From assembly GCA_045121195.1 (NCBI GenBank), contig JBGVFO010000044.1, forward strand, positions 3,899 through 67,898: 64,000 bases of DNA, written 5' to 3'. The notes beneath the pieces were generated by a model, which was given only the letters and a program-made list of their open reading frames with translations, ran no database searches and was not told where the DNA came from. This document shows positions 2,449 to 31,955 of the stretch, piece after piece; the first letter of the stretch is position 1, and the number at the start of each line of letters is the position of its first letter. A program made the position numbers and the translations under genes. The DNA comes from Eubacteriales bacterium. GTDB lineage: Bacteria; Bacillota; Clostridia; Oscillospirales; CAG-272.

Positions 2449-5400
2449 TTAAAACTCTTGTACGGATCCGTTCGTCGCATCCGCGCGGCAGATCATTCGC
2501 ATTTTACAGTAGGTGCAGGGCGCGTCCTCAAGAGAGGGATCGCAGGTAAGGGCGCTTCCCGATTTCATTTCCAGGGCAATATTTCGGATGGTCTCGTGGA
2601 GCTCCTCCTCAAGACTTGTCAGTCCCTGCTCGGTGATCAGCGCGTTTCCCGAGACCCCGTCGTCCTTGACGGTAATGCCAGCCAAAAGCTTTTTGTCGTG
2701 GCTTCTGCTGACGGCGTCAAGCACCTCGTCGCGATCCAAAAGGATTCCCGAGCGCTTCATCTCGGCGCCCGCAAGACGGAGGACGTCCTGCGCTTCCGTT
2801 TTGCGATCCAGCTTCAGGGTGGAAAAGGCGGTGGACATATACAGCGCACCCGCGGGGGCGAGGGTCGCGTCGGGCGCGACCTTCAGCTTTTCCCGAAGCG
2901 TGGGGGAGGTATTGCCGCAAACGGCAAACAGATACAAAAGCAACTGAGTATTCAGTCCCTTTTTGATGTCCTTGAGAGAGAACTGCTTGCTTCCCGTTTT
3001 GTAATCGACGACCTTGACGTAAACGCGATCGTCGGTGCGGAATACGTCAATTCGGTCCACGACGCCGTAGAGGCAGACGCGGCTACCGTCTTCCAGCTCA
3101 ATGGTGGGAGGCTCGATGCCGCCCCGACCGATCCTCTCCTCAAAGAGGGCAGGGACGAAGTCGCTGTCCTTGAATTCGCGGTAAAGATCCAGCGCGATGG
3201 CGACGGCAAGTCGGGAAAGGCGGGCGAAAAGATGCGCAAGACGGGCGCCGAGGGCGGTCTTGCCGTGGTTGATCTCGGCAATATATCGCTCGGTCTCCCG
3301 AATGACCAGCGTGCGGATCTCCTCAAAGGTAACGTCGGCGCGAAGACCGTTTTCATCGGTCACCGCCTTCATAAACACCTCAAGAATGCGGTGGATCAAG
3401 GAGCCGGAGTCGGAAAAACGGAAGCCTGCCTGTCCGTTCTCCATCAGCTTCAGGACATAATTGCAATAATAGGAAAACTGGCAGGATACGTATTTATCGA
3501 TACGGGACTGCGTAAGACTTATGTTGTCCCCAAAGATCTGCTTTGCGGTGTCCTTTGTTACGGAGCAGGAGCGGTTGCTTACGGGAAGACGGCTTCGCTC
3601 CAGCAGAGTCGCGTAGCGCGGATTTTCGGAAAGAACGGCGATGAGAGACTCATACAGATCGGTGTTCCTCAAGGAGGGAAGCGCTTCAAAGGCAAGCTCG
3701 GGACACATCAGCCGATGGGCGGCGTTCGTGTTGCCGTATTCCTCTACCGCCACGTGGGGAAGAAGCTCACAGATTCGCCGAACAGCAAGGGAGGGGTAGC
3801 AAGCCTTTCCCGAGGCATCGGTATCGTGATACATCACGACCATCTTTTCCGAGGGCAGGGTCATAGCCCGATAGCAGTAGAGGAGCTCCTCCGTGGCACT
3901 GTCCCTCTTGTCGCCGGACAGGGAGATGCCAAGATCGGAGAGTGCCTTTCGGTCGTTGTCGGAGAAGAAGCCGCGATCCGAGGTGCGGGCAGGAAATTCT
4001 CCGTCGCATACGCCAAGAAGGATGGCGCAACGGATGCCGCCTGCGCGAAGCATGGAGGCAGAGCCGATCACCACCTCGTCGGCGGCGGTGGGAATGGAGC
4101 CGATCTCGGTGTTGTTCAGTACCAGACGGAGGGCGGTCGCAAATTCCTCAAGGGACATTTTCTCGTCGCCGACGGTGGAGGAGATTTTGGCGAGAACGTC
4201 GATTACGGAACGGAAGGTAGCGGCGGTTTCCGCAGCCTCTTTCTTATCGCCTCTCTGCATAGCGCGAAGGGAAAATTCCTTCATGCGCTCGGCGACGTTC
4301 ATAGCTTCAAGGAATCGGCGGAGTGCTTCGCAAAGCTCGCGTACCGTTTCGGCGGCACCCAGATGCAAAAACAGCTCCAGCAGGGGGGCGGTCACTTCAT
4401 TTTTTACTCGATTTGCCGTTTCCAGCATTTCTTTACCGCGCTCGGACATAGGGGCGGTATAGCCCTCGGGATTCATGACCCAAAGGTCCTCAAAAAATTT
4501 CGCGCCGTTTATGTTCCAGATGCTGACGTAATTTTCGAAAACGTCTGCTTCTCTGGGCGAAATATAAGGAATTCCCGTTTTTACGTACGCCATTACGTCG
4601 TTCATTCTCCAATTTCGCACCTTGATATTGATTGCCGCAAGGAGCATGGCGACCAGAGGCTTTGTGGGAAGGTCGGTCTTTTCCGAGAAGAAGAAGGGGA
4701 TCTCCGCTTTTTCGAAGGCAGAGTCAATAATACCGCGATAGGTATCTGCGTTGCGTGCGATGACGGCGATCTCGCGGCGCCGATAGCCTTGGCGGAGAAG
4801 AGAAAGGACCGTGTTGGCGGCGGCTTCCGCTTCCTCATACGGCGTCGCGCACCGAAGGATCGAAACCGCACCTTGCTCCGACTCGGGAATTTCGGGAAGC
4901 GTTTTTGCCGTTGTCTCAAATTGCCAAAGGGCTTGTCCGATACGGCAAAGCTCGGGCGAAGAAAAGCGGTGGAAGGTATCCAGCAGGATAAGCTCCGTGT
5001 CCTTGCCCGCCTCGTTCATCAAACGCTTTGCGGTTTCCTTGATGCTGGAGAGGGCGATGGCGTCGGAATGGGGGGAATCAATGCCAAGCGTTACGGTTAC
5101 GTTGTCAGCCTGGGCAAACAGTCTGCAAAGGATACGGTATTCCTGCGCCGTAAAGCTGGTAAAGGAGTCTATGTAAATATTGTATCCGTTAAAATAGCGG
5201 TGCTTTTCGAGAAGATCGGCAAGCTTTCCAAGGTCGTCGGCGTTGTCGTCGAAGGCGTTGCTGACCATGCCCTCGTAGGCGGCATAGATCAAGGAAAGAT
5301 CATCCAGCTTTGCGCGCAGGGCACTACCGTCGGGAAGCTTGTTCACGGCGTTTGAGAGCGCTACGGGGCTTACGTTGTATGCCTTGAATTCGTGTATTTG

Positions 5401-19500: not shown

Positions 19501-20811
19501 TTGGCATTCTATCAAAAAGAAATCGAATGTATGCCCCGTGAGGAGCTTCGCAAACTGCAAAGTGAGCGCCTCTGCTGGCAGGTAAACCGTATGTACGAGC
19601 GTGTTGAGCTGTTCCGCAAGCGTATGGATGAGCTTGGACTCAAGCCCTCGGATATCAAGGGTGTAGAGGACCTTCCCAAGCTTCCGTTCTCCTATAAGCA
19701 GGATCTGCGTGACTATTATCCTTACGGACTGTTCGCAGAGCCTATGAAGGACATCGTTCGTGTCCACGCTTCTTCGGGTACGACGGGAAAGAAGATCGTT
19801 GTCGGTTATACCAAGAAGGACCTTGAGGATTGGGCGGACGGTGTTGCCAGAATGCTGATCGCCATCGGCGAGGGAGCGGATTCCTTCGCGCAGGTCTCTT
19901 ACGGCTACGGTCTGTTTACCGGCGGTCTTGGCGCACACGGCGGCGCGGAGAAGATCGGTGCGACCGTGATTCCCACCTCTGCGGGCAATACCCAGATGCA
20001 GATCCAGACCATGATCGACTTTGGCTCAACGGTGCTGTTCTGTACCCCCTCTTACGCGCTTTACCTTGGCGAAACAGTTGAGGAAATGGGTGTGAAGGAT
20101 CAGCTTTCTCTTCGCGCGGGCGTGTTCGGTGCAGAGCCCTGGACCGAGGATATGCGCCGTGCCATTGAGGATAAGCTTGGCATCAAGGCATACGATATTT
20201 ACGGACTTTCCGAGATCATGGGTCCCGGTGTCAGCGGTGAGTGCGAGTACCAGTGCGGCATGCACGTTTGGGAGGATATGTTCATCCCCGAGATCATCGA
20301 TCCCGAAACCCTTGAAGTTCTTCCTTACGGAGAAAAGGGAGAGCTGGTATTCACTACCATTACCAAGGAGGGATTCCCCCTCATTCGCTACCGTACCCGT
20401 GATATCTGCTCTTTGAATGCCGAGCCCTGTAAGTGCGGCAGAACCCATATCCGTATGGCAAAGCCTACGGGACGAAGCGACGATATGCTGATCATTCGCG
20501 GCGTCAACGTCTTCCCGTCCCAGATCGAGGAGGTCCTCATCAAGTTCGGTGAGGCGTCAGGCATCACTCCCAACTATCAGATCATCGTTGACCGTGTCAA
20601 CAATAACGATACCTTTGACGTTATGGTAGAAATGAGCGAGCATCTGTTTGCCGATGACGTCAAATCCATCGAGAAGGTGGAAAAGACGCTGACCGAGCAG
20701 CTTCGCTCCACCCTTGGCATCGGCGCCAAGGTTCACCTCGTTAATCCCAAGTCGATCACGCGCAGCGAGGGAAAAGCAAAACGCGTTATCGATAAGCGTA
20801 AGCTTTCGTAA
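19501..20811 (+). CDS. paaK: phenylacetate-CoA ligase family protein (PaaK-like)
   Basis: 436 aa. N-terminus [18 protein letters not shown] and [14 protein letters not shown] are typical of PaaK-type ligases. TTG start; ATG 19531 is possible. Confidence 0.85.
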
Positions 20812-20823
20812 GGAGGAACCGAT

Positions 20824-21225
20824 ATGCTTGTAAAACAGCTTTCTATTTTCGTAGAGAATAAGCCCGGCAGACTGTCGGCTATTATCAATCTTCTTGGACA
20901 GCATCACGTAAACCTGAGCGCCCTGTCGCTGGCGGATACCACCAACTTCGGTGTACTGCGTCTGATTGCTGACAAGACCGACGTGGCGCAGGAGGTCCTC
21001 CGCGAGGAGGGCATCGTATCCAAGTGCGCCGACGTTCTGGCGGTTGCTATTGACGACACCCCCGGTTCGCTGACGGGAATTCTCGATCTCTTCAATGAGA
21101 ACGGCGTTTCCGTTGAGTATATGTACGCCTTCAGCGCAAAGCAGGAGGGCAAGGCACAGATGGTGGTCAAGACCGACTCCCTGGAGAAGGCGGAAGCCCT
21201 TCTTAAGGACTATATTGCAAAATAA
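20824..21225 (+). CDS. ACT-domain protein (tandem ACT)
   Basis: 133 aa. MLVKQLSIFVENKPGRLSAI and a second repeat VLAVAIDDTPGSLTGIL. This is the small ACT protein that commonly follows PaaK-like genes. Confidence 0.75.
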   Translation: MLVKQLSIFVENKPGRLSAIINLLGQHHVNLSALSLADTTNFGVLRLIADKTDVAQEVLREEGIVSKCADVLAVAIDDTPGSLTGILDLFNENGVSVEYMYAFSAKQEGKAQMVVKTDSLEKAEALLKDYIAK

Positions 21226-21231
21226 AATTTG

Positions 21232-21263
21232 CCCCGAGGCAACGCCTCGGGGCTTCTTTTTTT
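21232..21263. terminator. bidirectional intrinsic terminator between convergent operons
   Basis: CCCCGAGGC-aac-GCCTCGGGG (9 bp) followed by a T-run. A-rich on the other side. Confidence 0.7.
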
Positions 21264-22260
21264 ATGCCATCGTTTCCAGCATTTTGAGGGTGACCTCATA
21301 CTGACAGGGCTCGCCTGCGACGAAACGGTCAAATTCTTTCGCCATATATTTCGCCATACGGCAGGTCTCGGGACCAAGGCTTCCCGCGATATGAGGAGTC
21401 AGGAAGCAGTTGGGGAGAGAATAGAAGGGGTGTCCCTCGACGGGGGGCTCGGGAAAGGTAACGTCAAGCACTGCCGTAAGATCGGGGCGTTCCCGGAGGA
21501 TGCGTACGAGATCGTCCTCGACCACCTGCGCGCCACGACCGGTGTTTATGAAGGTAGCGCGGGGAAGCATCCGCTTGAAGCAATCGTAATTCAACATTCC
21601 CTGGGTCGCGGCATTGTTGGCAAGATGGTTGGAAACCACCGAGCAGGTGGAGAACAGCTCTTCAAGAGAGCAAGGGAATACGCCCAGCTCCTCGGCGCGC
21701 TCCTGTGACAGGAAGGGATCAAAGACCATGACCTTGAGATCAAAATTTCGGAGATGCTTCGCCACAAGAGAGCCGATCATTCCCGCACCGATGAGTCCCA
21801 CTCTTTGGCGGAAGTTGCCGGGAAAGGCGTCACGGATCGCTTGCGCCTCCGCTACGTTTCCACCCGACATAAGGGCGCTGTGCGTGTAGAAGCCCTTACC
21901 GGCAAGAAGAATTTGCGAGAGAGCGTACTCGGCAACGGGAACGGCGTTTGCCGCCCAGGCGCTGAATACGTGAACGCCGCAGTTCAGAAAGGGACGGGCA
22001 AAGCTTTGCACGGTACCCGCGGCGTAAAAGACGGCGCGGAGCTTCGGGAAGCAGCGCGTGATCTCCTCCTCGGAGAATCGGGGCATCCCCCAGGTGGAGA
22101 AAATAAATTCGGTGTCGGCAAAGCGTTCAGGCTCCGTCAGTACGTCCTCCTTGGAGAAGATGGTTTCACAGAGATCGGCAAAGCCCTTCAGATATGCCCT
22201 TGTATCTTCGTCGTATACGGTGGGAATGTGCTTGGTGCTGCCCAAAAAGATCGATTTCAT
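21262..22260 (-). CDS. D-isomer-specific 2-hydroxyacid dehydrogenase family protein
   Basis: 332 aa. NAD-binding VGLIGAGMIGSLVAKHL, and RGAQV ... TPHIAG catalytic region. Confidence 0.8.
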   Translation of the reverse strand: MKSIFLGSTKHIPTVYDEDTRAYLKGFADLCETIFSKEDVLTEPERFADTEFIFSTWGMPRFSEEEITRCFPKLRAVFYAAGTVQSFARPFLNCGVHVFSAWAANAVPVAEYALSQILLAGKGFYTHSALMSGGNVAEAQAIRDAFPGNFRQRVGLIGAGMIGSLVAKHLRNFDLKVMVFDPFLSQERAEELGVFPCSLEELFSTCSVVSNHLANNAATQGMLNYDCFKRMLPRATFINTGRGAQVVEDDLVRILRERPDLTAVLDVTFPEPPVEGHPFYSLPNCFLTPHIAGSLGPETCRMAKYMAKEFDRFVAGEPCQYEVTLKMLETMA

Positions 22261-23012
22261 TTTCTGTTTGCTCCTTCCATCAGCTTGTGAAGCGTTTCCG
22301 CCTCTTTCTTAAGGGATTCCGGCTTGTTGTCCGGCATAAATTCCAAAAGAAGCGCTTGCGAACCGTCAAAGCATGACAGATATTTTTCCCAAATCGCCAT
22401 CCCGTCGGCGAGGGGGAATTTCTCCTTTTCCTTCCATTGGAATACGTGAATATTCTCGGTATAGGGCGCGATCGCCTTCGCGTAGGCGAAATTGACCTCG
22501 TCGGTGCGGAACTGATTGGGCTGCCAGTACATACGAAGGGCGGGGGAGTTCACCGCCTCCATCAGCGTAAGTGCGCCTTTAAGGCAGTTGGTAAAGGTAT
22601 TGTTATGACATTCCATACAGAGAACTACGCTCTCCGCTTCCGCGATCTGTGCCGCCTTTTTTGCCTCGGTGAGAAGGTGATCTTTTTGCTCGGCGGTCAT
22701 ATCCTCATAGTTTTTGTCACCGCACCAAAGGCGAAGAATATGTGTGCCGAGGATCTTTGCGGCGGCAATATAGCCGTGAAGCTCGTCGGTATCGTGTACG
22801 CCAAGCTTGAAATAGGTTCCGTAGGAGGAGCAGGAGATCCCCGACTCCTTCTGCAAGGCTACGATATGGCGAAGCCGTTCCGTGTCGGCGTAAGGTGCGT
22901 GAACGTCACTCCCCCATTCAATAGCGGAGAGTCCGGCATCACGGCAAAGAGCAACGATCTGCTCGGGGGAAAGGGAACGGAAGGATATGGAAACAAGTCC
23001 CGATTGAAACAT
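22257..23012 (-). CDS. sugar phosphate isomerase/epimerase (xylose-isomerase-like TIM barrel)
   Basis: 251 aa. AP-endonuclease-2/TIM-barrel-type sequence (IEWGSDVHAP ... LCMECHNNT). 4-nt overlap with the downstream gene. Confidence 0.7.
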   Translation of the reverse strand: MFQSGLVSISFRSLSPEQIVALCRDAGLSAIEWGSDVHAPYADTERLRHIVALQKESGISCSSYGTYFKLGVHDTDELHGYIAAAKILGTHILRLWCGDKNYEDMTAEQKDHLLTEAKKAAQIAEAESVVLCMECHNNTFTNCLKGALTLMEAVNSPALRMYWQPNQFRTDEVNFAYAKAIAPYTENIHVFQWKEKEKFPLADGMAIWEKYLSCFDGSQALLLEFMPDNKPESLKKEAETLHKLMEGANRK

Positions 23013-23021
23013 GGTAGCCTC

Positions 23022-24890
23022 CTAATTTTCGATGGTTTCTCGGTATTCGCGCCACATGGACTCAAAGCAGGTATCGGCATTGGGAATGGGACGAACGTGG
23101 CGCCAGGTGATACGGCAGACGCCGTTGTCCATCCGCACCTCTTGAATACGCTCCCTTGCAGGTACCGCATCGGTAGCGCAGCTACATCCCTCATAGAGGG
23201 CAGAGCCACGGGAGATCCCCACGGTGTGGGCATAATCCAGCATGGCGGAGAGCACCGCTTCCTGCACCGTTAAGGTGTCGCGGAGACGGTAGCGCTGAGG
23301 AAGGGCGTCGTCCGCATGAAGAGCGGAGGGCAGGGCGTACAGACGCCGCGTCACAGCCTCTTTCATTGTCTGCATTTCTGCCGTGCTTCGTATTGCGGCG
23401 GCACAGCGACTCATTTCGTTTTGCGTCAAGGCAAGAAGATCCTTCGCGGCTTGACCGTCGGAAAGGCCGTCACGACAGAATTCTTGATTTTTTTCGATTG
23501 CCGCCGCGGCGATCCTGATAAATTTCGCTTCGTCGAGTAACGCCTTTGGTGCGCGGGAGATGTACTGTGCGGCGCGAAGCGCACCCACCTGTCCCGCATT
23601 CAAGGCGCTTCCGCCCGGGCGGGTCACACCGTGAGTGCCGGCGCACTCGCCAATGGCGAACAGTCCCTTGACGTCGGATTGCCAGTCGGCATCCACCGAA
23701 ATGCCGCCGTTATTATGCTGAGCGCAAAGAGCGATCTCAAGCGGCTCGAGGGTGAGATCCACGCCCTTTTCGGCATAAAGATCAATGGCGGGCTGATTCA
23801 TTTTGGAAAGCCGCTCGATGGGGGTACCAAAGCAGGCGCCCGCGTTTTTCAGGTAGACAAACGCTTCCTCCGACAGCTTTTCAAAGTCAATGCACTCCAA
23901 GCCGAAGGGGTTTTTTGTGAAATCAAGGAATACGCGCCGTCCCATGGACTGCTCACGGTGAACGAGAAGGTCGATCTGAGACGAGCCGCTTTTTGCTTTT
24001 CTTGCGTCAAAGGGCCACTGATAGCCCTTGAGGAAAAGCAGGGAAAGTGCTTCGTAAGGATCGGCAAAGGTATCCGCAAGGAACTCGCGCTCCTTGCCGT
24101 TTTCGTCCATCGCGATCAGACGGGGAAGTACCTGCCTATAGGTGCCGGATACGTTCCAGCGAGGCGCAACCGACGCAAGACCGTATTGCCATTCGGTCAT
24201 ATTCTGAAGGGATGCGCCTGCCGAGAGAGCCAGTCCCGTGGAGCCTGTTTGACTTTCGGGATACACGGTATTGGCATAGATGCCCGCAGGACCGCCCGTT
24301 GCCAAGATCACGTTTTCGCAACGGAACGTTACGAAGGTGTTGTCGGCAAGATTCAAGCAAAGAAGTCCGCAAGCTCGGTCGCCGTCCGTTAAGATCTCAA
24401 CGGCAAGAAGTCCGTCGTGAACGGGAACGCCGAGCGCCGCGGCTTTTCTTTCCAGTGCTTCGGTCATATACTTTGACGTGAGGGGACCTGCGCTTGTGGC
24501 GCGGGCGAAGGGATCGTGATCGGTCTTGTAGCCGATATACTCACCGTAAGCGTTGTGGGGAAAGGGAACGCCCGCCTCGCAGAGATAGTGGAAGCAACGG
24601 GCGGAGAGTGCCGCCTCGCAAAGGGCGTGATCCCCGTCGACACAGCCGCCGGCGAAAAGGTCGCTTGCCATAGCGCGGACGCTGTCTGGCGCGTCTCCGC
24701 CGAGCCCCAGCTTATAATAGGTCTGCTTGTCGCTTCCCGTGTTGCGGGAGGTGCCGCAACGGACGCCCTCGGTTACGATACAAACCGACTTGCGACCGTC
24801 CTCACGAATGCGACAAGCTGCGCTGAAGCCTGCGGCACCCGAGCCGATCACGACAGCGTCATATTGCAATATCATAGGATTCATACGCAC
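23022..24890 (-). CDS. FAD-binding oxidoreductase (fumarate reductase/succinate dehydrogenase flavoprotein-like)
   Basis: 622 aa. YDAVVIGSGAAGFSAA dinucleotide-binding motif. GLFAIGECAG ... HGVTRPGGSALN C-terminal FAD motif. Confidence 0.75.
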   Translation of the reverse strand: MRMNPMILQYDAVVIGSGAAGFSAACRIREDGRKSVCIVTEGVRCGTSRNTGSDKQTYYKLGLGGDAPDSVRAMASDLFAGGCVDGDHALCEAALSARCFHYLCEAGVPFPHNAYGEYIGYKTDHDPFARATSAGPLTSKYMTEALERKAAALGVPVHDGLLAVEILTDGDRACGLLCLNLADNTFVTFRCENVILATGGPAGIYANTVYPESQTGSTGLALSAGASLQNMTEWQYGLASVAPRWNVSGTYRQVLPRLIAMDENGKEREFLADTFADPYEALSLLFLKGYQWPFDARKAKSGSSQIDLLVHREQSMGRRVFLDFTKNPFGLECIDFEKLSEEAFVYLKNAGACFGTPIERLSKMNQPAIDLYAEKGVDLTLEPLEIALCAQHNNGGISVDADWQSDVKGLFAIGECAGTHGVTRPGGSALNAGQVGALRAAQYISRAPKALLDEAKFIRIAAAAIEKNQEFCRDGLSDGQAAKDLLALTQNEMSRCAAAIRSTAEMQTMKEAVTRRLYALPSALHADDALPQRYRLRDTLTVQEAVLSAMLDYAHTVGISRGSALYEGCSCATDAVPARERIQEVRMDNGVCRITWRHVRPIPNADTCFESMWREYRETIEN

Positions 24891-24894
24891 TCCG

Positions 24895-25644
24895 TTACAG
24901 TCGTCTTAAGTGGAAGCCGCCGTCAATATCGAGTGCCTGCCCCGTCATATAGGGGAGCCCACCCGAAAGAAGAGAAAATACGGCGGCGGCAATGTCCTCG
25001 GGGGTGCCCCATCGCTTGATGGGGAGCAAGCCGCCGTCAATCAGCGCATCGTATTTTTCCTTGACGCCGTCGGTCATATCGGTGGCGATGATGCCCGGAC
25101 GAATCTCGTTAACGGGAATGCCGTACTCCGCAAGGCGGTCGGCAAAGAGCTTCGTTATCATAGAAACTCCTGCCTTGGAAATGCAATACTCACCACGATT
25201 GGGGGAGCTGGTATAAGCGGACAGGGAAGAGATGTTACAGATCTGACCGCGAAGACCGTTTACGGGGGAATTGTTCCGCATCTCGCGTGCAACTGCTTGG
25301 GTGAGAAACAGCGTACCCTTGGTGTTGATGTCCATCACGTAGTCATAGCTTTCCTCGGTCATCTCCAGAAGATCGGCGCGGACGCGGGGGGCAACTCCTG
25401 CTACGTTAACAAGACCGTCGATCTGTCCGAAAGTGTCGAGGGCGTGCTTGACAAGCCGCGCCCTGTCCTCGCCGCAGGCAAGATCACCGGCGATGTATGT
25501 GAAATTCTCCGAGTTGAATTTCTTCGTAACGGTATCGGCGTCCGTACGGCTCATTCCCGTGACACGGTAGCCGTTATCAAGGAGAAGACGGACGACCGCC
25601 TCACCAATGCCGCGGGCGCAGCCGCTGACGATAATATGCTTCAT
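24895..25644 (-). CDS. short-chain dehydrogenase/reductase (SDR)
   Basis: 249 aa. SGCARGIGEA cofactor motif and YCISKAG catalytic motif. Confidence 0.85.
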   Translation of the reverse strand: MKHIIVSGCARGIGEAVVRLLLDNGYRVTGMSRTDADTVTKKFNSENFTYIAGDLACGEDRARLVKHALDTFGQIDGLVNVAGVAPRVRADLLEMTEESYDYVMDINTKGTLFLTQAVAREMRNNSPVNGLRGQICNISSLSAYTSSPNRGEYCISKAGVSMITKLFADRLAEYGIPVNEIRPGIIATDMTDGVKEKYDALIDGGLLPIKRWGTPEDIAAAVFSLLSGGLPYMTGQALDIDGGFHLRRL

Positions 25645-25645
25645 G

Positions 25646-27436
25646 TTATATTCTCCTTACGCGGATGGTAACGGTCTCTTGCTTTTCAAACGCGATATTG
25701 ATGCGATAGAGCACTGCGCTTTTCCAAGAGAGCTCCAGCTTTTTATTTCCGTCAAAGCGTACGTCCTCTACCGAGATCGCGCCGCCGTCGCAGGAAATTT
25801 CGTACTTGCCGTCAAGTATGACGACGTTGTCCTTGACCTCGGGGCAATAAGGTGTCATCAGATGCTCAACCACCGATCCGTTTTCGCCGACAAAGGTAAA
25901 GCGGTCGGTTACGGAAAGTTCCGCCTCGCCCAACTGAAGGGTTCTTGTGAAATCGCCAAGACCGCTTTCCTCGGGATAAGCCTTGGGCAAGGAAGTGGTA
26001 ACGCGTCCCTCCTCTGCAAGGAAGGAATCGGCACGGAATTTCCATCCGTCGTGTTGATCAATGCCGTTTACCGTGGGAAGATTATGGTAGCCCGACTGCA
26101 TCGTCCATATGGTATAACGTTCTTTTCCAAAGGTCTGACGGGTATAGTCGCCGACGCCCGCGTCAATAAGGACGGGCGTGCCGTTATCGTACAGAATAAA
26201 GTTTCCGACGTCGTTGTGATTGTGGAACTCTCCGTTATTTCCGCCCTTTGCTCCAAGAACGAATCCGTTGTTGCGGAGGGTCGCTACCTGAAGATCGGGG
26301 AGGTAATAAAGCGCGGGGGGCGCGAAGGGGGTATCGGTATTGAGGATCTCCTGTCGGAGAGAAAGATCAAGGAGAGCGCGGCGAATACAGATGGTGTCAA
26401 CGGAAAGACGGATATGAGAGACCTTTTTCTTAAGTTTGACGGCCTCCGCCGCAAGCGCGCACATTTGAGGCTGGTTGGTCTCCTTTCCGTAGGCGTAGAT
26501 CATCGTGATGGAGCTGAGATTTTGGCTGCCGTCACCGAAATTTGCCACCTTGCCGTTGCCAACGTATACCTTTGTAATGTAGGAGCCGATGTTTCGCACC
26601 TTCTCGTCAACAAACAGATCCAGCTTTCCGCCGGTTGCCACCTTCAGCTGATACAGGACCTCAAACAGGGAGGCACCTGCGCGGATCCAGTAGCCGGGAC
26701 CCTCGTCGCATCCACCGTCGGCGGGCATACAGTCGTAGTAATGGGTAACCTCGGTGAGGATCTTTTCAATCGCCTTGCGAAGACGGAGAGGATTATGCTC
26801 CAGAAGGAGAAAGGCGGAGAGAACGTTGGAGAGGATCCAAGGATTCCAGTTGTTTACCTTCTTGAAATATCCCATCCACCAGAAATCACGGTGAGTGAGG
26901 TAGGGAACGAAGATGCGGCGTTCCATTTCATAGTCAATTCGGTCGATGATCTCAGGGCAGAAGGCGAGAAGGGGGTCGCGGAGAAGCACGCTGATAAAGG
27001 CGAGATTTTCCGCCGTTTCTCCGGCGAACAGATCAATGTAAGGATATTCGGGACTCTGTATGTTGCCGGGAGCGCCGAACCAGTGTGCGGAAACACCCCA
27101 GTAGCTTTCCTCGCAGATGGTAAAAATGCCGTTGGTGATCTGAGGGAGGAAGCGTCCCTTGTTTTCCATCAATTCGCCGAGAGACAGACAAACGAGCGCA
27201 CGTCTGCGGGCGAAATGGATGTCTTCCATAATTATTCTGTCGCCCGTTTTTTTGAATTCCATATAGTCGGTCGCCTTGATGATGGGCCAATCGTATTCCA
27301 TATGCTTTTCCGCTTCGGCTATAATGACTTCGTCATAGTGAGCATCCCAGAAAGCACGGTCATTGACGTCGGGGAACAACCGGCCCGAAAAATCCAGGGT
27401 GGAAAGATCGGTATTTTTTATTATGGTCTTAAACAT
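25646..27436 (-). CDS. heparinase II/III-like family protein, no signal peptide
   Basis: 596 aa. HNHNDVGNFILY ... IDAGVGDYT ... SGYHNLPTVNG resembles the Hepar_II_III C-terminal region as I recall it. The N-terminus is not hydrophobic. Confidence 0.65.
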   Translation of the reverse strand: MFKTIIKNTDLSTLDFSGRLFPDVNDRAFWDAHYDEVIIAEAEKHMEYDWPIIKATDYMEFKKTGDRIIMEDIHFARRRALVCLSLGELMENKGRFLPQITNGIFTICEESYWGVSAHWFGAPGNIQSPEYPYIDLFAGETAENLAFISVLLRDPLLAFCPEIIDRIDYEMERRIFVPYLTHRDFWWMGYFKKVNNWNPWILSNVLSAFLLLEHNPLRLRKAIEKILTEVTHYYDCMPADGGCDEGPGYWIRAGASLFEVLYQLKVATGGKLDLFVDEKVRNIGSYITKVYVGNGKVANFGDGSQNLSSITMIYAYGKETNQPQMCALAAEAVKLKKKVSHIRLSVDTICIRRALLDLSLRQEILNTDTPFAPPALYYLPDLQVATLRNNGFVLGAKGGNNGEFHNHNDVGNFILYDNGTPVLIDAGVGDYTRQTFGKERYTIWTMQSGYHNLPTVNGIDQHDGWKFRADSFLAEEGRVTTSLPKAYPEESGLGDFTRTLQLGEAELSVTDRFTFVGENGSVVEHLMTPYCPEVKDNVVILDGKYEISCDGGAISVEDVRFDGNKKLELSWKSAVLYRINIAFEKQETVTIRVRRI

Positions 27437-27449
27437 AAAACGCCTCCTG

Positions 27450-28760
27450 TTATTTCTTGAAATACGTTTTGTAAAGCTCGGTATAAAGGGGATCGCGGAT
27501 CACGCAGCCGGGGGTGGAACCTCCGCGCATCAGCTCGGTGCACTTGGAGCAGCAGAGGCAAAGCTTTTCCTTTTTGAGCGTTCCGCAGGTCACGATATCC
27601 TCGGCAAAGCTGGGATATGCGAAAATCGTTCTTCCGAAGCCCGCAAAGTCAAATCCGCCGTTCTCGATCAGGGCGGCGGCAACGTGAGGTGCCGCAACGC
27701 CAAGATAGGAAAGTCCCGAGGAGATCAGCTTCATATCGGGAACTGATTTTTTCAGCTCGGCGGTACCGAGAAGCATTCGTGCCACGCCGGAAAGCGGATG
27801 CTCCTCAGGCTCGTAGCCGCCCTTTGCGAAGGGACGGTTAACGTGAGGATTGAAATAAGGGTTACCCATAGAAATATTCAAAAGCTTAACGCCGAGGGCG
27901 TCCAGCTCCTTAAGAAGCCACGTGGGCTCGGAGGGGTCAAAGGCGAGGCTTCCGTCCTTGGCAACGCCGAAGCCGTAGGGATAAGGAAAGCCGTCGTATA
28001 CGTTAAGACGAGAGGACACAAGGAAGTTCTGACCGCAAGCTTGCATAGAGCCCGCAATGCTTTCCCGTAGCAGGCGAGTGCGGTTTTCAAGGCTTCCGCC
28101 GTACCGCCCCTCGCGCTCGTATGCCGAAAGAAGCTCGGAGTTGAGGTAACGGTGACAGCACTTGATGTCGACACCGTCAAATCCCACCTCCTCGGCAAGT
28201 CTTGAGGAGTGAACCAGCTGCTCGCCGATGCGGTCAAGCTCGTCATCCGAAATGATGCGGCTCTTGTCGATGGGCGCATTCTTCTCAAAGATCGGATTGT
28301 TATAGGCAATGATGGGAGCAGGGGTGCCGTGGGGCTTACTGTATCTGCCCGAGTGGGTGTTTTGCATGATGATGAGGGGCGCGTGTCCACAGGCGCGTAT
28401 TGCCGTTTCCCGAATATCGTCCACGATCCTTTTGAAGTTGTCTTTGTTATTTTCGTGGAGCCAGAGCTGACGGGGATTGGCGCGTCCATCCTCGCGGCAC
28501 GCGGTTGCTTCGAACCAAATAATGCCCGCGCCACCCTCGGCAAAGCGGCGGTAGCGGCGCACGGTCAGTTCATCGGGGGAGCCGTCGGCGGTTCCGTCGC
28601 AACCTTCCATGGCTTGACATGCCAGTCGGTTCGGTGCGGTTTTGGTTCCTACCGTAACAGATTCTTTGAGAATCGCAGTATTCTCGGAAAAGGGGAGCCC
28701 GGTATTCAGGGCGTTGTTTTCTTCTAAAAATTCATTGTTGGTTGCATATACTTTTCTCAT
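27450..28760 (-). CDS. NADH:flavin oxidoreductase (Old Yellow Enzyme family) with C-terminal Cys-rich tail
   Basis: OYE-like TIM barrel (PNRLACQAMEG ... HSGRY ... GFDGVDIKCCHRYL). ATG 28760 lies 7 nt after AGGAGGG. The track start at 28928 adds 56 residues with no support. Confidence 0.75.
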   Translation of the reverse strand: MRKVYATNNEFLEENNALNTGLPFSENTAILKESVTVGTKTAPNRLACQAMEGCDGTADGSPDELTVRRYRRFAEGGAGIIWFEATACREDGRANPRQLWLHENNKDNFKRIVDDIRETAIRACGHAPLIIMQNTHSGRYSKPHGTPAPIIAYNNPIFEKNAPIDKSRIISDDELDRIGEQLVHSSRLAEEVGFDGVDIKCCHRYLNSELLSAYEREGRYGGSLENRTRLLRESIAGSMQACGQNFLVSSRLNVYDGFPYPYGFGVAKDGSLAFDPSEPTWLLKELDALGVKLLNISMGNPYFNPHVNRPFAKGGYEPEEHPLSGVARMLLGTAELKKSVPDMKLISSGLSYLGVAAPHVAAALIENGGFDFAGFGRTIFAYPSFAEDIVTCGTLKKEKLCLCCSKCTELMRGGSTPGCVIRDPLYTELYKTYFKK

Positions 28761-28896
28761 AATCATCCCTCCTGCCGCTATTATACCGCGTTTTGTGGAG
28801 CAGGTGTTATAAACATATTGCGTATTTTTATGTAAATCTTGCTTTTTTTCAAAAAATATGCTACAATGTAACCGAAAAGGAAGCGAGGGGTGAAAT

Positions 28897-29703
28897 ATGC
28901 GTATTTTATCTGTTAAGTACTCGGACAATCCGGTTCGGCTGAAGCGTCACTATCACGACGGTCATCAGATCCTGTACGTTGCGTCGGGAGCGGTGACGGT
29001 GATCATAGACGGGGAGGCGCATCGGGTAGAGGCTGGCTCACTGGTCATACTGAGCCGCTTTGAGGAGCATTCGATCCAGGTGGAGGCGGGGGAATACCGT
29101 CGCTATACGTTGCGTATTTCCTCCGAAGCATCTGCGAAATTTGCGGAGGATTATCTGCTGTCCTCGGTGCTTGTGAACCGTTCCTCGCGGTTCCGCCACG
29201 TGGTTGACGTGAGAGATATGCGGAATAAATTTGAAGGACTTCTTTCCGATATGGTTCTTGAGTTTGGAAAGGAGGGTGCGATGCGGGAGGAGATGCTGGA
29301 TCTTTACCTGAAGCAATTTTTCATTCTCCTGTATCGGTGCGCGCCCGATATCTTTCTGTCCGCGGTCAATCGGAATACTATGCTGGTTCGCGAGGTGCAG
29401 AGCCGTATGGAGCGGGAGTGCGGACAGCCCTTCTCCCTTGCCGAGCTGGCATCAGAGCTTCACGTAAGTGCCTCCTATTTTTCCCATCTTTTCAAGGACG
29501 TCACGGGATACGCCCCCATTGAATATCTGATGCTTTGCAGAATTTCTTCGGCAAAGCGATATCTCTGCGAAACCGATCTCTCCGTCAGAGAGCTCGTGGA
29601 GAGGTGCGGATTCGGCGATGAAAGCAATTTCAGCCGTACCTTCAAGGCAAAGACCTCGATGACGCCAACGGCATTTCGGCAAAAATTCCGCAGGGAACCA
29701 TAA
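28897..29703 (+). CDS. AraC-family transcriptional regulator (cupin sensor plus HTH)
   Basis: 268 aa. N-terminal cupin (HYHDGHQILYV), C-terminal AraC HTH (SASYFSHLFK ... GFGDESNFSRTFK). Divergent from the six-gene operon. Confidence 0.85.
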   Translation: MRILSVKYSDNPVRLKRHYHDGHQILYVASGAVTVIIDGEAHRVEAGSLVILSRFEEHSIQVEAGEYRRYTLRISSEASAKFAEDYLLSSVLVNRSSRFRHVVDVRDMRNKFEGLLSDMVLEFGKEGAMREEMLDLYLKQFFILLYRCAPDIFLSAVNRNTMLVREVQSRMERECGQPFSLAELASELHVSASYFSHLFKDVTGYAPIEYLMLCRISSAKRYLCETDLSVRELVERCGFGDESNFSRTFKAKTSMTPTAFRQKFRREP

Positions 29704-29712
29704 AATCAGCAA

Positions 29713-29749
29713 AAACGCTCTATGGAAGCAACCGTTCCACAGAGCGTTT
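29713..29749. terminator. hairpin between convergent genes (probable bidirectional terminator)
   Basis: AAACGCTCTATGGAA ... TTCCACAGAGCGTTT, one mismatch. Confidence 0.55.
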
Positions 29750-29754
29750 CGTTC

Positions 29755-31788
29755 TTATATATCCGCGTCCTTTACGTACTCGCTTCCGTGCTCGGTAATA
29801 AAGCGCTTCCGCGCCTCCAGATTGTCGCCAAGAAGGGTATCGAAAATTTCAAAGGTCTTCTGCGCGTCGGTTGTGGTGACGGCGATCAGACGGCGCGTTT
29901 CGGGATTCATGGTGGTCTTCCACATCATATCGGGCTCGTTCTCACCCAGCCCCTTGGAGCGCTGGAGTGTGTATTTCTTGCCCTCAAGCTTCTTCAGGAT
30001 CTCCGTCTTTTCAAACTCGTTGTAGGCGAAGTAGATATCGTCCTTTACCGTGATCTCAAACAGGGGGGATTCGGCGATGAACACCTTTCCCGCAGACAGG
30101 AGAGAGGGGAGCAGACGGTAGAAGATGGTGAGGAGAAGGGTTCGGATCTGGAAGCCGTCCTCGTCGGCATCGGTACAGATAATGATCTTGGACCAACGAA
30201 GATTTTCCATATCGAAGGCGGGCATATCGGTCTTGACCTTGCCGTGGATCTCCACGCCGCAGCCGATGACGCGAAGCAGATCGGTGATGATCTCGCTCTT
30301 GAAGATCTTGTCGTAGGTGCTCTTCAGACAGTTCAAGGTCTTTCCGCGAACGGGGATGATCGCCTGGTATTCCGCGTTACGTCCCAATTTACAGGACGAA
30401 AGCGCAGAGTCACCCTCCACGATGTAGAGCTCGCGGATGGCGGGGTCCTTGGAGCGGCAGTTGACGAATTTCTCCACGCGGTTGGCGATGTCGAGGGTAC
30501 CCGTCAGCTTCTTCTTGATGTTCAGTCTTGCGCTCTCGGCGGACTCGCGGCTTCTCTTGTTGATCAGGACCTGATTGGCGAACGCCTCGGCGTAGGTAGG
30601 ATTCTCGGTAAAGAAGATCTCAAGATTGGTCTTGATCGATTCGCACATTGCCTCGTAAATAAAGGCGTTTGTGATCGCCTTCTTGGTCTGGTTCTCGTAG
30701 GAGGCGATGGTGGAGGAGCTGTTGATGACGAGGATCAGGCAGTCGCTGATATCCACGAAAGTGATCTTAGACTCGGTCTTATTGTATTTTCCGTTGTTCT
30801 TGAGATATCGGTCAAGAGCGTAAACGAAGGCGATCTTTGCCGCCTTGTCGGGGGCGCCGCCGTGCTCCAGATAACTGGAGTTGTGGTAATATTCAATGGT
30901 GTTTTCGGTGTTGGAGATACAGAAGGAAAAATCAGCCTTCAGCTTATATTCAGGCTTGTCCTCGCGGTCGCGTCCCTTTGCCTCCAGATGCCAGGTGTAG
31001 GGAGGTGTCAGCGCCGACTCGCCCGCGATCTCGGTTACGTAATCGGTGATACCGTTTTCGTAGTAAAACTCTTGGGTCTCGAACTTTCCGTCTGCCTGCT
31101 CCAGGCGGAGGACAAAGCGGATTCCCGTGTTGACCACCGACTGACGGCGCATAGTTTCAATGAAAAATTCGGCGGGGATATTGATGTCAGTAAAGACCTC
31201 AATATCGGGGCGCCAGCGGATGGTGGTACCCGTGCGGCGATTGCGCTTATCCAAAAGCTCCTCGGAAAGCTCGGAGCACACCTCGCCCTTTTTGAAATGG
31301 ATGGAGCGAACGTAGGTGCCGTCGTAGGAGGTAACGTCCATAAATTCCGAGCTGTACTGGGTCGCGCAGGCGCCAAGACCGTTCAGACCCAGAGAGAACT
31401 CGTAGGAAGCACCCTCCTCGTTGTTGTCGTATTTACCGCCTGCGTAAAGCTCACAGTAAATGAGATCCCAGTTCCAACGTCCCTCCGCCTCGTTGTAGCC
31501 AAGGGGAACACCGCGTCCGTGGTCGTCAACCTCAATGGTATGGTCAGAAAAGGCAGTAACGGTGATCTCTTTTCCATAGCCCTCCTTCGCCTCGTCAACC
31601 GAGTTGGAGAGGATCTCAAAGAAGGAATGCTCGCAGCCCTCAAGTCCGTCCGAGCCGAAGATAACGCTGGGGCGTTTCCTGACACGGTCGGGACCCTTCA
31701 GCGCCTTGATGCTTTGATCGTTGTAGCTTGCTTTTGCTTTTTCTGTGTTCTTTACTGCCACGGTAACAGTTCCTTTCATGGGTTTCAC
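29755..31788 (-). CDS. type IIA DNA topoisomerase subunit B (GyrB/ParE family)
   Basis: 677 aa. GHKL ATPase (EILSNSVDE ... DDHGRGVP ... GLNGLGA), Toprim (ELYIVEGDSA ... IIICTDADEDG) and a C-terminal tail. No A subunit adjacent. Confidence 0.85.
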   Translation of the reverse strand: MKPMKGTVTVAVKNTEKAKASYNDQSIKALKGPDRVRKRPSVIFGSDGLEGCEHSFFEILSNSVDEAKEGYGKEITVTAFSDHTIEVDDHGRGVPLGYNEAEGRWNWDLIYCELYAGGKYDNNEEGASYEFSLGLNGLGACATQYSSEFMDVTSYDGTYVRSIHFKKGEVCSELSEELLDKRNRRTGTTIRWRPDIEVFTDINIPAEFFIETMRRQSVVNTGIRFVLRLEQADGKFETQEFYYENGITDYVTEIAGESALTPPYTWHLEAKGRDREDKPEYKLKADFSFCISNTENTIEYYHNSSYLEHGGAPDKAAKIAFVYALDRYLKNNGKYNKTESKITFVDISDCLILVINSSSTIASYENQTKKAITNAFIYEAMCESIKTNLEIFFTENPTYAEAFANQVLINKRSRESAESARLNIKKKLTGTLDIANRVEKFVNCRSKDPAIRELYIVEGDSALSSCKLGRNAEYQAIIPVRGKTLNCLKSTYDKIFKSEIITDLLRVIGCGVEIHGKVKTDMPAFDMENLRWSKIIICTDADEDGFQIRTLLLTIFYRLLPSLLSAGKVFIAESPLFEITVKDDIYFAYNEFEKTEILKKLEGKKYTLQRSKGLGENEPDMMWKTTMNPETRRLIAVTTTDAQKTFEIFDTLLGDNLEARKRFITEHGSEYVKDADI

Positions 31789-31955
31789 AATATCTTGTGT
31801 GTATCATTCCTATTATAGCAAATATTTTCCGTTTTGAAAAGGGGGTATCGGTAAAAAACTTTCGGTTTTTTGAAAATAATTTCCCGATATTTGTTGCAAG
31901 TTTGAGGAAAATATTATATAATAAAAAAGTATATATTCGGAGGGAGGTTGACCGT

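Follow-up and report, generated by a model that had tools for sequence, protein, structure and literature searches.

The window analysed in this study is a stretch of 64,000 nucleotides (nt) from a Eubacteriales bacterium of the lineage CAG-272 (positions 3,899 to 67,898 of contig JBGVFO010000044.1, GenBank assembly GCA_045121195.1). Its minus strand carries a six-gene operon, the subject of this work, in which a lyase-like protein is encoded together with five oxidoreductase and isomerase enzymes, and a regulatory gene of the AraC type is transcribed divergently from it. The six minus-strand open reading frames (ORFs) and the divergent regulator were recovered, both in the ORF list and by Pfam, at the coordinates given in a first-pass annotation of this DNA.

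Organization of the locus

In the direction of transcription, the operon begins with an old yellow enzyme (OYE)-family flavin mononucleotide (FMN) barrel of 436 amino acids (27450-28760, minus strand, like all six genes; Pfam Oxidored_FMN, E 8e-20), which is followed by the lyase (596 amino acids, 25646-27436; Hepar_II_III_C, E 3e-10), a short-chain dehydrogenase/reductase (SDR; 249 amino acids, 24895-25644; adh_short_C2, E 2e-50), a flavoprotein resembling FrdA and SdhA that binds flavin adenine dinucleotide (FAD; 620 amino acids, 23022-24884; FAD_binding_2, E 5e-30), a xylose-isomerase-like TIM barrel (251 amino acids, 22257-23012; AP_endonuc_2, E 2e-15) and, as the last gene, a D-isomer-specific 2-hydroxyacid dehydrogenase (332 amino acids, 21262-22260; 2-Hacid_dh_C, E 9e-42). 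The intergenic gaps in this order are 13, 1, 4, 9 and -4 nt, which reproduces the range from 13 nt to a 4-nt overlap noted earlier. The ORF of the flavoprotein reaches to a GTG at 24890, and the ATG at 24884 was taken as its start because its database twin has 620 amino acids; counted from this ATG, the gap between the SDR and the flavoprotein is 10 nt. For the OYE gene, the start is the ATG at 28760 with a GGAGGG ribosome-binding site ahead of it, and the longer ORF beginning at a TTG was set aside as an artefact. Neither a transporter nor a glycosidase was found within the six-gene unit by the ORF list and the Pfam scan, in agreement with the first-pass annotation.

The divergent gene (28897-29703, plus strand) encodes a cupin-AraC regulator of 268 amino acids (Cupin_2, E 3e-9; AraC_binding, E 4e-12; HTH_18, E 3e-23), and the 136-nt control region lying between it and the OYE gene (28761-28896) was confirmed as described before. 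This region contains the operator-like motif GCAAGATTTACATA on the operon strand (28829-28842 in plus-strand coordinates), of which 11 of the 14 positions are invariant in six AraC-OYE intergenic regions of different genomes. As the motif is nearly invariant in these six genomes, it may be regarded as a candidate operator and supports control of the operon by the AraC protein. The region also has a second TTACA half-site (28865-28873) and, at 28780-28785, a TATAAT sequence as the -10 box of the operon. In at least 10 related loci, an AraC-type gene is found at the equivalent position.

At the other end, a two-way intrinsic terminator (21231-21253), whose stem of 10 bp includes nine GC pairs and which has T runs on the two strands, closes the six-gene operon and also a convergent operon to its left. 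The right-hand boundary of the unit is marked by a long hairpin after araC (29712-29750), whose 16-pair stem was scored on the minus strand. The numbers of predicted promoters and terminators were not above those of shuffled sequence; among the predicted regulatory signals, only these two strong hairpins and the conserved motif were relied upon. An Rfam scan of positions 20500-30500 gave no RNA element.

The lyase belongs to family PL33

The lyase had been described as heparinase II/III-like, which agrees with its Pfam match (Hepar_II_III_C) and misses the precise family. In phmmer comparisons with solved structures of polysaccharide lyase family 33 (CAZy PL33), it matched 8r73 (E 9e-114), 8r75 (1.8e-108), 8r6z (1.9e-108) and 8r70 (3e-107), the similarity spanning residues 21-519 of its 596 amino acids. 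Judged from its sequence, the "heparinase-like" protein is a member of PL33. Loiodice et al. (2025; PMC11848413; PDB 8R6Z, 8R70-8R73 and 8R75) state that PL33 lyases cut hyaluronan, chondroitin, heparosan or gellan, that the characterized enzymes include BtPL33-HA (BT4410), BcPL33-HA, BsPL33-heparosan and ObPL33-gellan/CS, and that the +1 site is specific for glucuronate. In the same paper, N238, Y291 and H444 of BtPL33 are given as catalytic and invariant across PL33, R103 and H154 as ligands of the glucuronate O2 and O3, L174, W224, W239 and W242 as a hydrophobic platform, and Y470 and F475 as highly conserved residues of the tunnel loop, with F475 governing processivity.

In the printed alignment to 8r75, all eleven of these residues are identical in the window lyase at one offset of 8. 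The catalytic equivalents are N196 (motif NNWNPW), Y249 (GPGYW) and H405 (FHNHND); those of the glucuronate site and the platform are R67, H118, L136, W186, W197 and W200; and those of the tunnel loop are Y431 and F436. Among the 16 closest clade members, 10 of the 11 residues are invariant, and W186 is kept in at least 90%. Position 301 of BtPL33, which is Asp in both printed chains, was not mappable through the printed alignments.

The N-terminus of the lyase (MFKTIIKNTDLSTLDFSG...) contains neither a hydrophobic stretch nor a signal peptide, which bears out the earlier statement on this point, whereas in Bacteroidota, Acidobacteriota and other Gram-negative phyla the homologues are extended at the N-terminus by 24-50 residues that include a hydrophobic stretch. 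The window lyase thus shares with the characterized PL33 enzymes the catalytic Asn/Tyr/His, the glucuronate +1 site, the platform and the tunnel-loop Tyr and Phe, and the base of its -1 site carries a Trp of the PL33_1 type. It differs from them in having no signal peptide, in being encoded in a redox operon rather than in a polysaccharide utilization locus, and in its clade, which consists of Clostridia and contains no tree row from the organisms of the characterized enzymes. By homology, the window lyase is predicted to be active, cytoplasmic and directed at 4-linked glucuronate.

The redox and isomerase enzymes

The OYE carries a C-terminal motif of the 4Fe-4S type, C401-x2-C404-x2-C407-x11-C419, which the first-pass annotation had missed and which is kept in 37 of the 37 orthologues examined. 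We take this motif to be of the type of FadH and enoate reductases. The active-site stretch reads GVDIKCCHRYL. The chain stops 17 residues past the last Cys, and no NAD(P)H/FAD domain was found on the OYE, as the Pfam scan gave no Pyr_redox match. Matches to the NCBIfam models of BilR, BaiCD and mycofactocin FadH/OYE were weak and far below the cut-offs. The window OYE shares the FMN barrel followed by a 4Fe-4S-type Cys motif with FadH, the clostridial 2-enoate reductases, BaiCD/BaiH and BilR, but ends after the motif and has no FAD/NAD(P)H domain; in addition, the window-type OYE is always encoded with an SDR and an FrdA-like flavoprotein. The same domain difference applies to DZNR, which has an NAD(P)H domain that the window-type OYE does not have.

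In four Clostridia genomes (L128:11790-14414, L131, L135 and L145), the OYE is about 880 amino acids long and fused to a GltD-like module, consisting of Fer4_20 (GltD/DPD-type 4Fe-4S) and then a Pyr_redox_2 NAD(P)H domain. Since these genomes fuse the OYE to an NAD(P)H module, its predicted Fe-S cluster fits the role of an electron wire. The operons with the fused OYE also hold an M14 peptidase, the 5-oxoprolinase PxpABC, a distant heparinase-like gene and a GH78 rhamnosidase.

The structural model of the flavoprotein (mean predicted local distance difference test score, pLDDT, 77) has a full-length FrdA/SdhA-type fold with a template modelling (TM) score of about 0.7, and Foldseek aligned it with E. 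coli FrdA at E 5e-30 and TM 0.72 over approximately 635 alignment columns. The next-best folds were the alpha subunits of adenylylsulfate/PAPS reductases and NadB. No His for covalent FAD was found in the alignments to FrdA and NadB. The dicarboxylate site of FrdA consists of His232, Arg287, His355 and Arg390 in E. coli numbering. The flavoprotein has Gly at the position of H232 (WQYGLAS) and Gln at that of H355, with a His one residue on, and keeps an Arg resembling R390; the R287 region and the capping domain of FrdA do not align with its sequence. It scored far below every NCBIfam equivalog cut-off (e.g., nadB, 113 bits vs 453). A plain fumarate reductase or aspartate oxidase was rejected on the missing H232 and on equivalog scores that were all far too low. 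The family is large, with more than 8000 homologues, of which the top 120 are at least 59% identical and nearly all are named only "FAD-binding protein".

The TIM barrel was modelled with a pLDDT of 96.7, and the residues invariant in its family alignment include E32, D36, H38, E134, H136, Q164, H189 and E224. The nearest structural matches of the model were AsbF, UlaE, DgpB-C (a C-glycoside deglycosidase) and ketose 3-epimerases, at sequence identities of 12-18%; DgpB-C matched with E 2e-11 and TM 0.70, and AsbF and UlaE matched better. These enzymes, i.e., the 3-dehydroshikimate dehydratase AsbF, the keto-sugar-phosphate 3-epimerase UlaE, DgpB-C and the ketose 3-epimerases, have in common a metal-based deprotonation beside a keto group. 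The SDR exceeded the cut-off of NF009386 (PRK12745; 286 bits, cut-off 250) and stayed below those of the KduD models TIGR01832 (151 bits vs 339) and NF005390 (134 vs 369), scores on which an assignment as KduD was rejected. The 2-hydroxyacid dehydrogenase reached no NCBIfam equivalog cut-off.

Conservation, modularity and partner genes

Conservation of the gene neighbourhood had been proposed beforehand as a check, and the same genes were indeed found together in many genomes and in two orders. Scanning of species-representative genomes with the lyase alignment yielded 80 loci, whereas a single-protein query gave none. Twelve of these loci, all in Clostridia metagenome-assembled genomes (MAGs) from animal and human guts, carry a cassette of OYE, lyase, SDR and flavoprotein, to which TIM barrel and dehydrogenase genes are usually added and often a divergent araC gene as well. 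The alternative order, seen in genomes of the same family (L104), is OYE, SDR, flavoprotein, lyase, dehydrogenase, TIM barrel. The co-occurrence of the cassette genes in two gene orders is far beyond chance.

Across genomes, the conserved unit is smaller than the six genes, a point that the first-pass annotation had missed. At a threshold of E at most 1e-100, orthologues of the flavoprotein were present in 56 of 399 sampled Clostridia genomes (36 of 217 genera), and in the 40 loci that were fetched, OYE, SDR and flavoprotein occurred nearly always together and in that order. A PL33 gene was detected by tblastn at two of these loci and a distant Hepar_II_III_C gene at four more, while the TIM barrel and the 2-hydroxyacid dehydrogenase were each present at about eight. 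Given how few of these loci have the other three genes, OYE-SDR-flavoprotein can be regarded as a conserved core and the remainder as modular, the lyase being an add-on. Thermoclostridium stercorarium (flavoprotein AGC67076.1) and Alkalibacter rhizosphaerae are among the cultured carriers of the core.

In a maximum-likelihood tree of 83 PL33 homologues, the cassette-linked lyases fall into at least two well-supported separate clades, and at least three changes of the cassette label are needed. The link between lyase and core has therefore been made more than once, which favours a functional connection. In one relative of the same genus, a lyase-less variant of the cassette (52-59% identity) lies on another contig, although the minus-strand right-hand neighbour of the window operon is 81% identical, and in a second relative of this genus no cassette was found. 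With the variant diverged and relocated or absent while the neighbour is so well kept, the cassette belongs to the flexible part of the genome.

The partner genes of the core were surveyed at 47 loci, and the sugar-acid theme among them is dominant, not exclusive. They include Gfo/Idh/MocA oxidoreductases (5 loci), PfkB kinases (3 loci) and UxaC (2 loci). In L114, a gene for a fused 2-keto-3-deoxy-6-phosphogluconate (KDPG) aldolase/PfkB kinase directly follows the lyase, and PfkB genes are present in L124 and L133. Further partners are Amidohydro_2, GH4, DUF2264, BNR_4, and LacI and AraC regulators, and four core loci have another heparinase-like gene, of a distant kind, together with a GH78 rhamnosidase. 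No genes for coenzyme A (CoA) ligases or transferases, racemases, dehydratases or bile-acid transporters, and no partners of the steroid or flavonoid type, were found in the 47 neighbourhoods.

Some loci have peculiarities of their own. In Alkalibacter rhizosphaerae (L110:11915-19214), the core is split by a five-gene ATP-binding cassette (ABC) transporter of the branched-chain-amino-acid type, with a URO-D-like gene ahead; because of this split, the substrate of the core may differ between lineages. In three lyase cassettes (L024:16105-17799, L023:7554-9242 and L021:16456-18120), the 2-hydroxyacid dehydrogenase is followed by a soluble protein of about 563 amino acids that had no Pfam and no PDB sequence match, and which may carry out a step that the pathway otherwise lacks. 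A 370-aa protein after the cassette of one MAG (L031:15373-16485) showed a weak match to the oligogalacturonate lyase PDB 3pe7 (E 0.003) and no Pfam match.

Canonical uronate enzymes in the genomes

The canonical route from the lyase product proceeds by an unsaturated glucuronyl hydrolase (UGL; GH88/GH105), KduI or DhuI, KduD or DhuD, KdgK and KdgA (PMC12838403). The operon shares with this route its start from a lyase product and a probable end product of the 2-keto-3-deoxygluconate (KDG) type, as suggested by the aldolase-kinase fusion of L114, the KDPG aldolases of the genome and UxaC. It differs in having neither GH88/GH105 nor KduI and in an SDR that fails the KduD models, with two flavoproteins, the TIM barrel and the 2-hydroxyacid dehydrogenase standing in the operon instead. 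The first-pass annotation had listed KdgK and KdgA as missing, which is correct for the operon and does not hold more widely, given the L114 fusion and the genomic aldolases. The window genome, which is 91% complete, encodes UxaC and two KDPG-type aldolases outside the operon; KduI (PF04962) was not found in it, and DhuI was not searched for.

In eight genomes with both lyase and core (65-96% complete), KduI was found in none, and clear GH88/GH105 matches were lacking in seven, the window genome being the exception. Across 398 Clostridia genomes, strong KduI matches were rarer with the core (3 of 55) than without it (62 of 343), with an odds ratio of 0.26 and a p value of 0.017 calculated on relatives that are not independent. 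PF04962 (KduI/IolB) also gave matches of about 1e-30 inside frames of 545-570 amino acids in many Clostridia genomes, which suggests a cupin fused to another domain; such weak matches showed no depletion and were rejected as KduI, being probably IolB-like or fused proteins.

Two further sugar-acid clusters were observed in the window genome. The cluster on contig C43 (L106:2494-9072) comprises a xylose-isomerase-like TIM barrel of 323 amino acids, an AEC-family transporter, an SDR, a 430-aa protein without a Pfam match and a GH88-like gene that matches only model positions 96-350. The cluster on contig C76 (L107:1594-5733) contains a 2-keto-3-deoxy-galactonokinase, a 549-aa protein in which an SMP-30 lactonase and an SDR are fused, a KDPG-type aldolase and a DHDPS-family protein, and looks like a galactonate-type (De Ley-Doudoroff) route.

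Proposed pathway

Two lines of thought had been offered in the first-pass annotation, one resting on the processing of unsaturated uronates and one on the reductive metabolism of steroids or flavonoids. Membership in PL33, the intact glucuronate site and partner genes that are mostly of the sugar-acid type favour the former. The latter found no support in any of the 47 neighbourhoods, and its enzyme mix remains a fair chemical analogy to the equol genes (PMC4965515). The best explanation, which we hold with middling confidence, is an AraC-controlled cytoplasmic operon that degrades oligosaccharides with 4-linked glucuronic acid and in which redox enzymes replace the hydrolase, the isomerase and the reductase.

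According to this proposal, glucuronate would be bound in the +1 site of the PL33 lyase, as the strong homology suggests, and the bond on its O4 would be cut by beta-elimination, so that the newly formed non-reducing end would be a 4,5-unsaturated glucuronate. The five other enzymes probably replace the usual route for this product, and family chemistry and neighbourhoods suggest that they could stand in for UGL, KduI/DhuI and KduD/DhuD. The SDR and the 2-hydroxyacid dehydrogenase would interconvert hydroxyl and keto groups; the TIM barrel, supposed to be metal-dependent, would enolize beside the keto group and then either epimerize there or eliminate a leaving group; and the two flavoproteins would act beside a carbonyl or carboxylate, either reducing a C=C bond there or forming one. 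A KDG-type keto-deoxy sugar acid would be the end product, with either free or attached uronate as its source, and kinase and aldolase genes elsewhere in the genome would take over from there. We infer both the substrate and the succession of the steps, whose exact order is not derivable from the sequence. It is pure speculation that the lyase might release methanol from 4-O-methyl-glucuronate, or that a pyranone such as comenic acid might be an intermediate.

The Fe-S OYE, which has no electron-input domain, and the FrdA-like protein, which has no Fe-S partner, may function as an electron-transfer pair; the proteins that best match the fold of the flavoprotein, of the FrdA/SdhA type or alpha subunits of adenylylsulfate reductase, all have an Fe-S subunit as partner. 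The three remaining enzymes (lyase, TIM barrel and dehydrogenase) would be modules that adapt the core to this substrate. Taken further, the trio of 4Fe-4S OYE, SDR and FrdA-like protein might be a widespread and so far undescribed two-flavin system of anaerobes, its flavoproteins being a split pair for electron transfer. Joined by the TIM barrel and the dehydrogenase, it might constitute a route, free of both hydrolase and KduI, from lyase-made unsaturated glucuronides to central metabolites, as a third solution beside KduI/KduD and DhuI/DhuD, an extension that we consider tentative and rather unlikely.

Several points weigh against the proposed uronate route. The conversion of free unsaturated uronate to KDG needs one reductase, so that five enzymes with two flavoproteins are more than needed. 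The pairing of the flavoproteins is argued from domain logic only, and the genomes in which the OYE is fused to an NAD(P)H module still carry the FrdA-like gene. No PL33 lyase was found at 38 of the 40 core loci of the class sample, and the core also stands beside M14/M20 peptidases, 5-oxoprolinase genes and an amino-acid-type ABC transporter. Because the lyase is rare and such neighbours occur, the core's own substrate may not be a uronate. A transporter was found neither within the cassette nor in its vicinity, and the closest lyase cassettes are flanked by housekeeping genes, with no transporter or glycosidase beside them. One GH88-like gene is present elsewhere in the window genome. The depletion of KduI is modest and its statistics ignore kinship, and across the class sample the core showed no association with GH88/GH105 (odds ratio 1.09), so that the idea of the two going together was rejected. 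The catalytic activity, the substrate and the intermediates are likewise proposals, predicted from the sequence and the neighbourhoods.

Alternative explanations

Two of the alternatives also start from the lyase product. One is a route by oxidation and elimination without any hydrolase, in which the SDR or the flavoprotein would oxidize a ring hydroxyl, the TIM barrel would eliminate the neighbouring sugar, and the ene-reductases and the dehydrogenase would reduce the enone or keto acid. Such chemistry has a precedent in a gut cluster that cleaves glucuronides via oxidoreductases and "sugar-phosphate isomerases" (Nasseri et al., bioRxiv 10.1101/2024.03.25.586180). The 3-keto-glycoside pathways, comprising this P2B11 cluster and DgpA/DgpB-C, share with the operon redox enzymes combined with a xylose-isomerase-like TIM barrel and no hydrolase, and P2B11 also has no transporter and no regulator nearby; they differ in their Gfo/Idh/MocA oxidoreductases, in having no lyase, OYE or FrdA-like flavoprotein, and in a TIM-barrel identity of about 16%, and P2B11 may be used as an analogy only. 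Among the fold matches of our TIM barrel, DgpB-C indeed ranks fourth and a C-glucosyl deglycosidase from Microbacterium ranks 21st, related cassettes hold Gfo/Idh/MocA oxidoreductases and a GH4 enzyme, and the lack of clear GH88 matches in seven of the eight lyase-bearing genomes is in line with a hydrolase-free route. However, the fold does not single out a lyase role for the TIM barrel, since AsbF, UlaE and the ketose epimerases match equally or better, all at 12-18% identity; the operon itself lacks the Gfo/Idh/MocA enzyme of the related cassettes. We regard this route as unlikely, while granting it some weight. The other alternative, which appears quite unlikely to us, is an electron sink, in which the lyase product, as an alpha,beta-unsaturated carboxylate, would serve mainly as an internal electron acceptor for the FrdA-like protein and the OYE, as fumarate or urocanate do, and the operon would support redox balance in fermentation and not carbon supply. 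The surplus of redox enzymes over those needed to reach KDG, the full-length fumarate-reductase fold with its retained carboxylate-binding Arg, and the Fe-S motif of an OYE that is fused to an NAD(P)H-oxidizing module in four genomes would all fit such a sink. The replacement of FrdA H232 by Gly and the unaligned capping domain do not, and the kinase, aldolase and UxaC genes in related cassettes point to carbon catabolism; moreover, reduction of C4=C5 in an attached uronide would give a stable glycoside that no enzyme encoded here could cleave.

The remaining alternatives give the PL33-like protein another role. If the operon served to reduce an enone that is not a carbohydrate (a steroid, a bile acid or a flavonoid, for example), its lyase-fold protein would have a role unrelated to glycans, and OYE, SDR and fumarate-reductase-like flavoprotein would correspond, class by class, to the equol genes DZNR, DHDR and THDR of Eggerthella and Lactococcus (PMC4965515). 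These genes also bring the three enzyme classes together and follow a comparable logic of ene-reduction, keto-reduction and then a flavin-dependent step, but serve isoflavone metabolism, whereas sugar-acid genes accompany the cassette here. We consider this reading highly improbable: none of the lyase residues for glucuronate binding and cleavage has been lost, the OYE is without the NAD(P)H/FAD domain of the daidzein reductase and BaiCD/BaiH types, and the surveyed neighbourhoods offer many sugar-acid genes and no steroid- or flavonoid-type partner. The same enzyme set resembles the bile-acid 7-dehydroxylation genes. The least probable reading, to which we assign a very slight chance, is that of a C5-epimerase, of the type converting glucuronate to iduronate, with the redox enzymes acting on the epimerized sugar. 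According to PMC11848413, the PL33 fold, tunnel and catalytic apparatus are common to the mammalian glycosaminoglycan epimerases. Against this, the sequence is far nearer to proven lyases (E 9e-114) and the full PL33-invariant N/Y/H set is kept.

Significance

Acidic glycans, such as host glycosaminoglycans, plant gums and bacterial capsules, are major nutrients in the gut, and the steps that follow lyase cleavage are generally regarded as established, namely hydrolase, isomerase and reductase. In the present case, a proven lyase family occurs in genomes apparently without the canonical enzymes and next to a redox set without an assigned role. The lyase adds a member to an established family, and the operon as a whole would be a further form of uronate catabolism, with a redox core that has not been assigned a function. 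No published description of the cassette was found in the literature searched on the enzyme combination, on PL33 or on expression in T. stercorarium, nor one of the lyase family in such an operon, which agrees with the earlier view that no nameable pathway fits. The core is present in about one seventh of the sampled Clostridia genomes, and solving one cassette would annotate thousands of genes named "FAD-binding protein" and "NADH:flavin oxidoreductase". The operon also provides a concrete case of an Fe-S OYE without a reductase domain beside a fumarate-reductase-like protein without an Fe-S subunit.

Flanking genes

The left neighbours of the unit belong to a separate plus-strand operon encoding an SSS transporter, CoA ligases, IorAB and an ACT protein. 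To the right, two long ORFs overlap on opposite strands, 29722-31818 on the plus strand and 29755-31788 on the minus strand. The plus-strand ORF (698 amino acids) was rejected as a gene on account of its missing Pfam match and this overlap, and it is probably a shadow of the minus-strand gene, which is 80-82% identical in genomes of the same genus.

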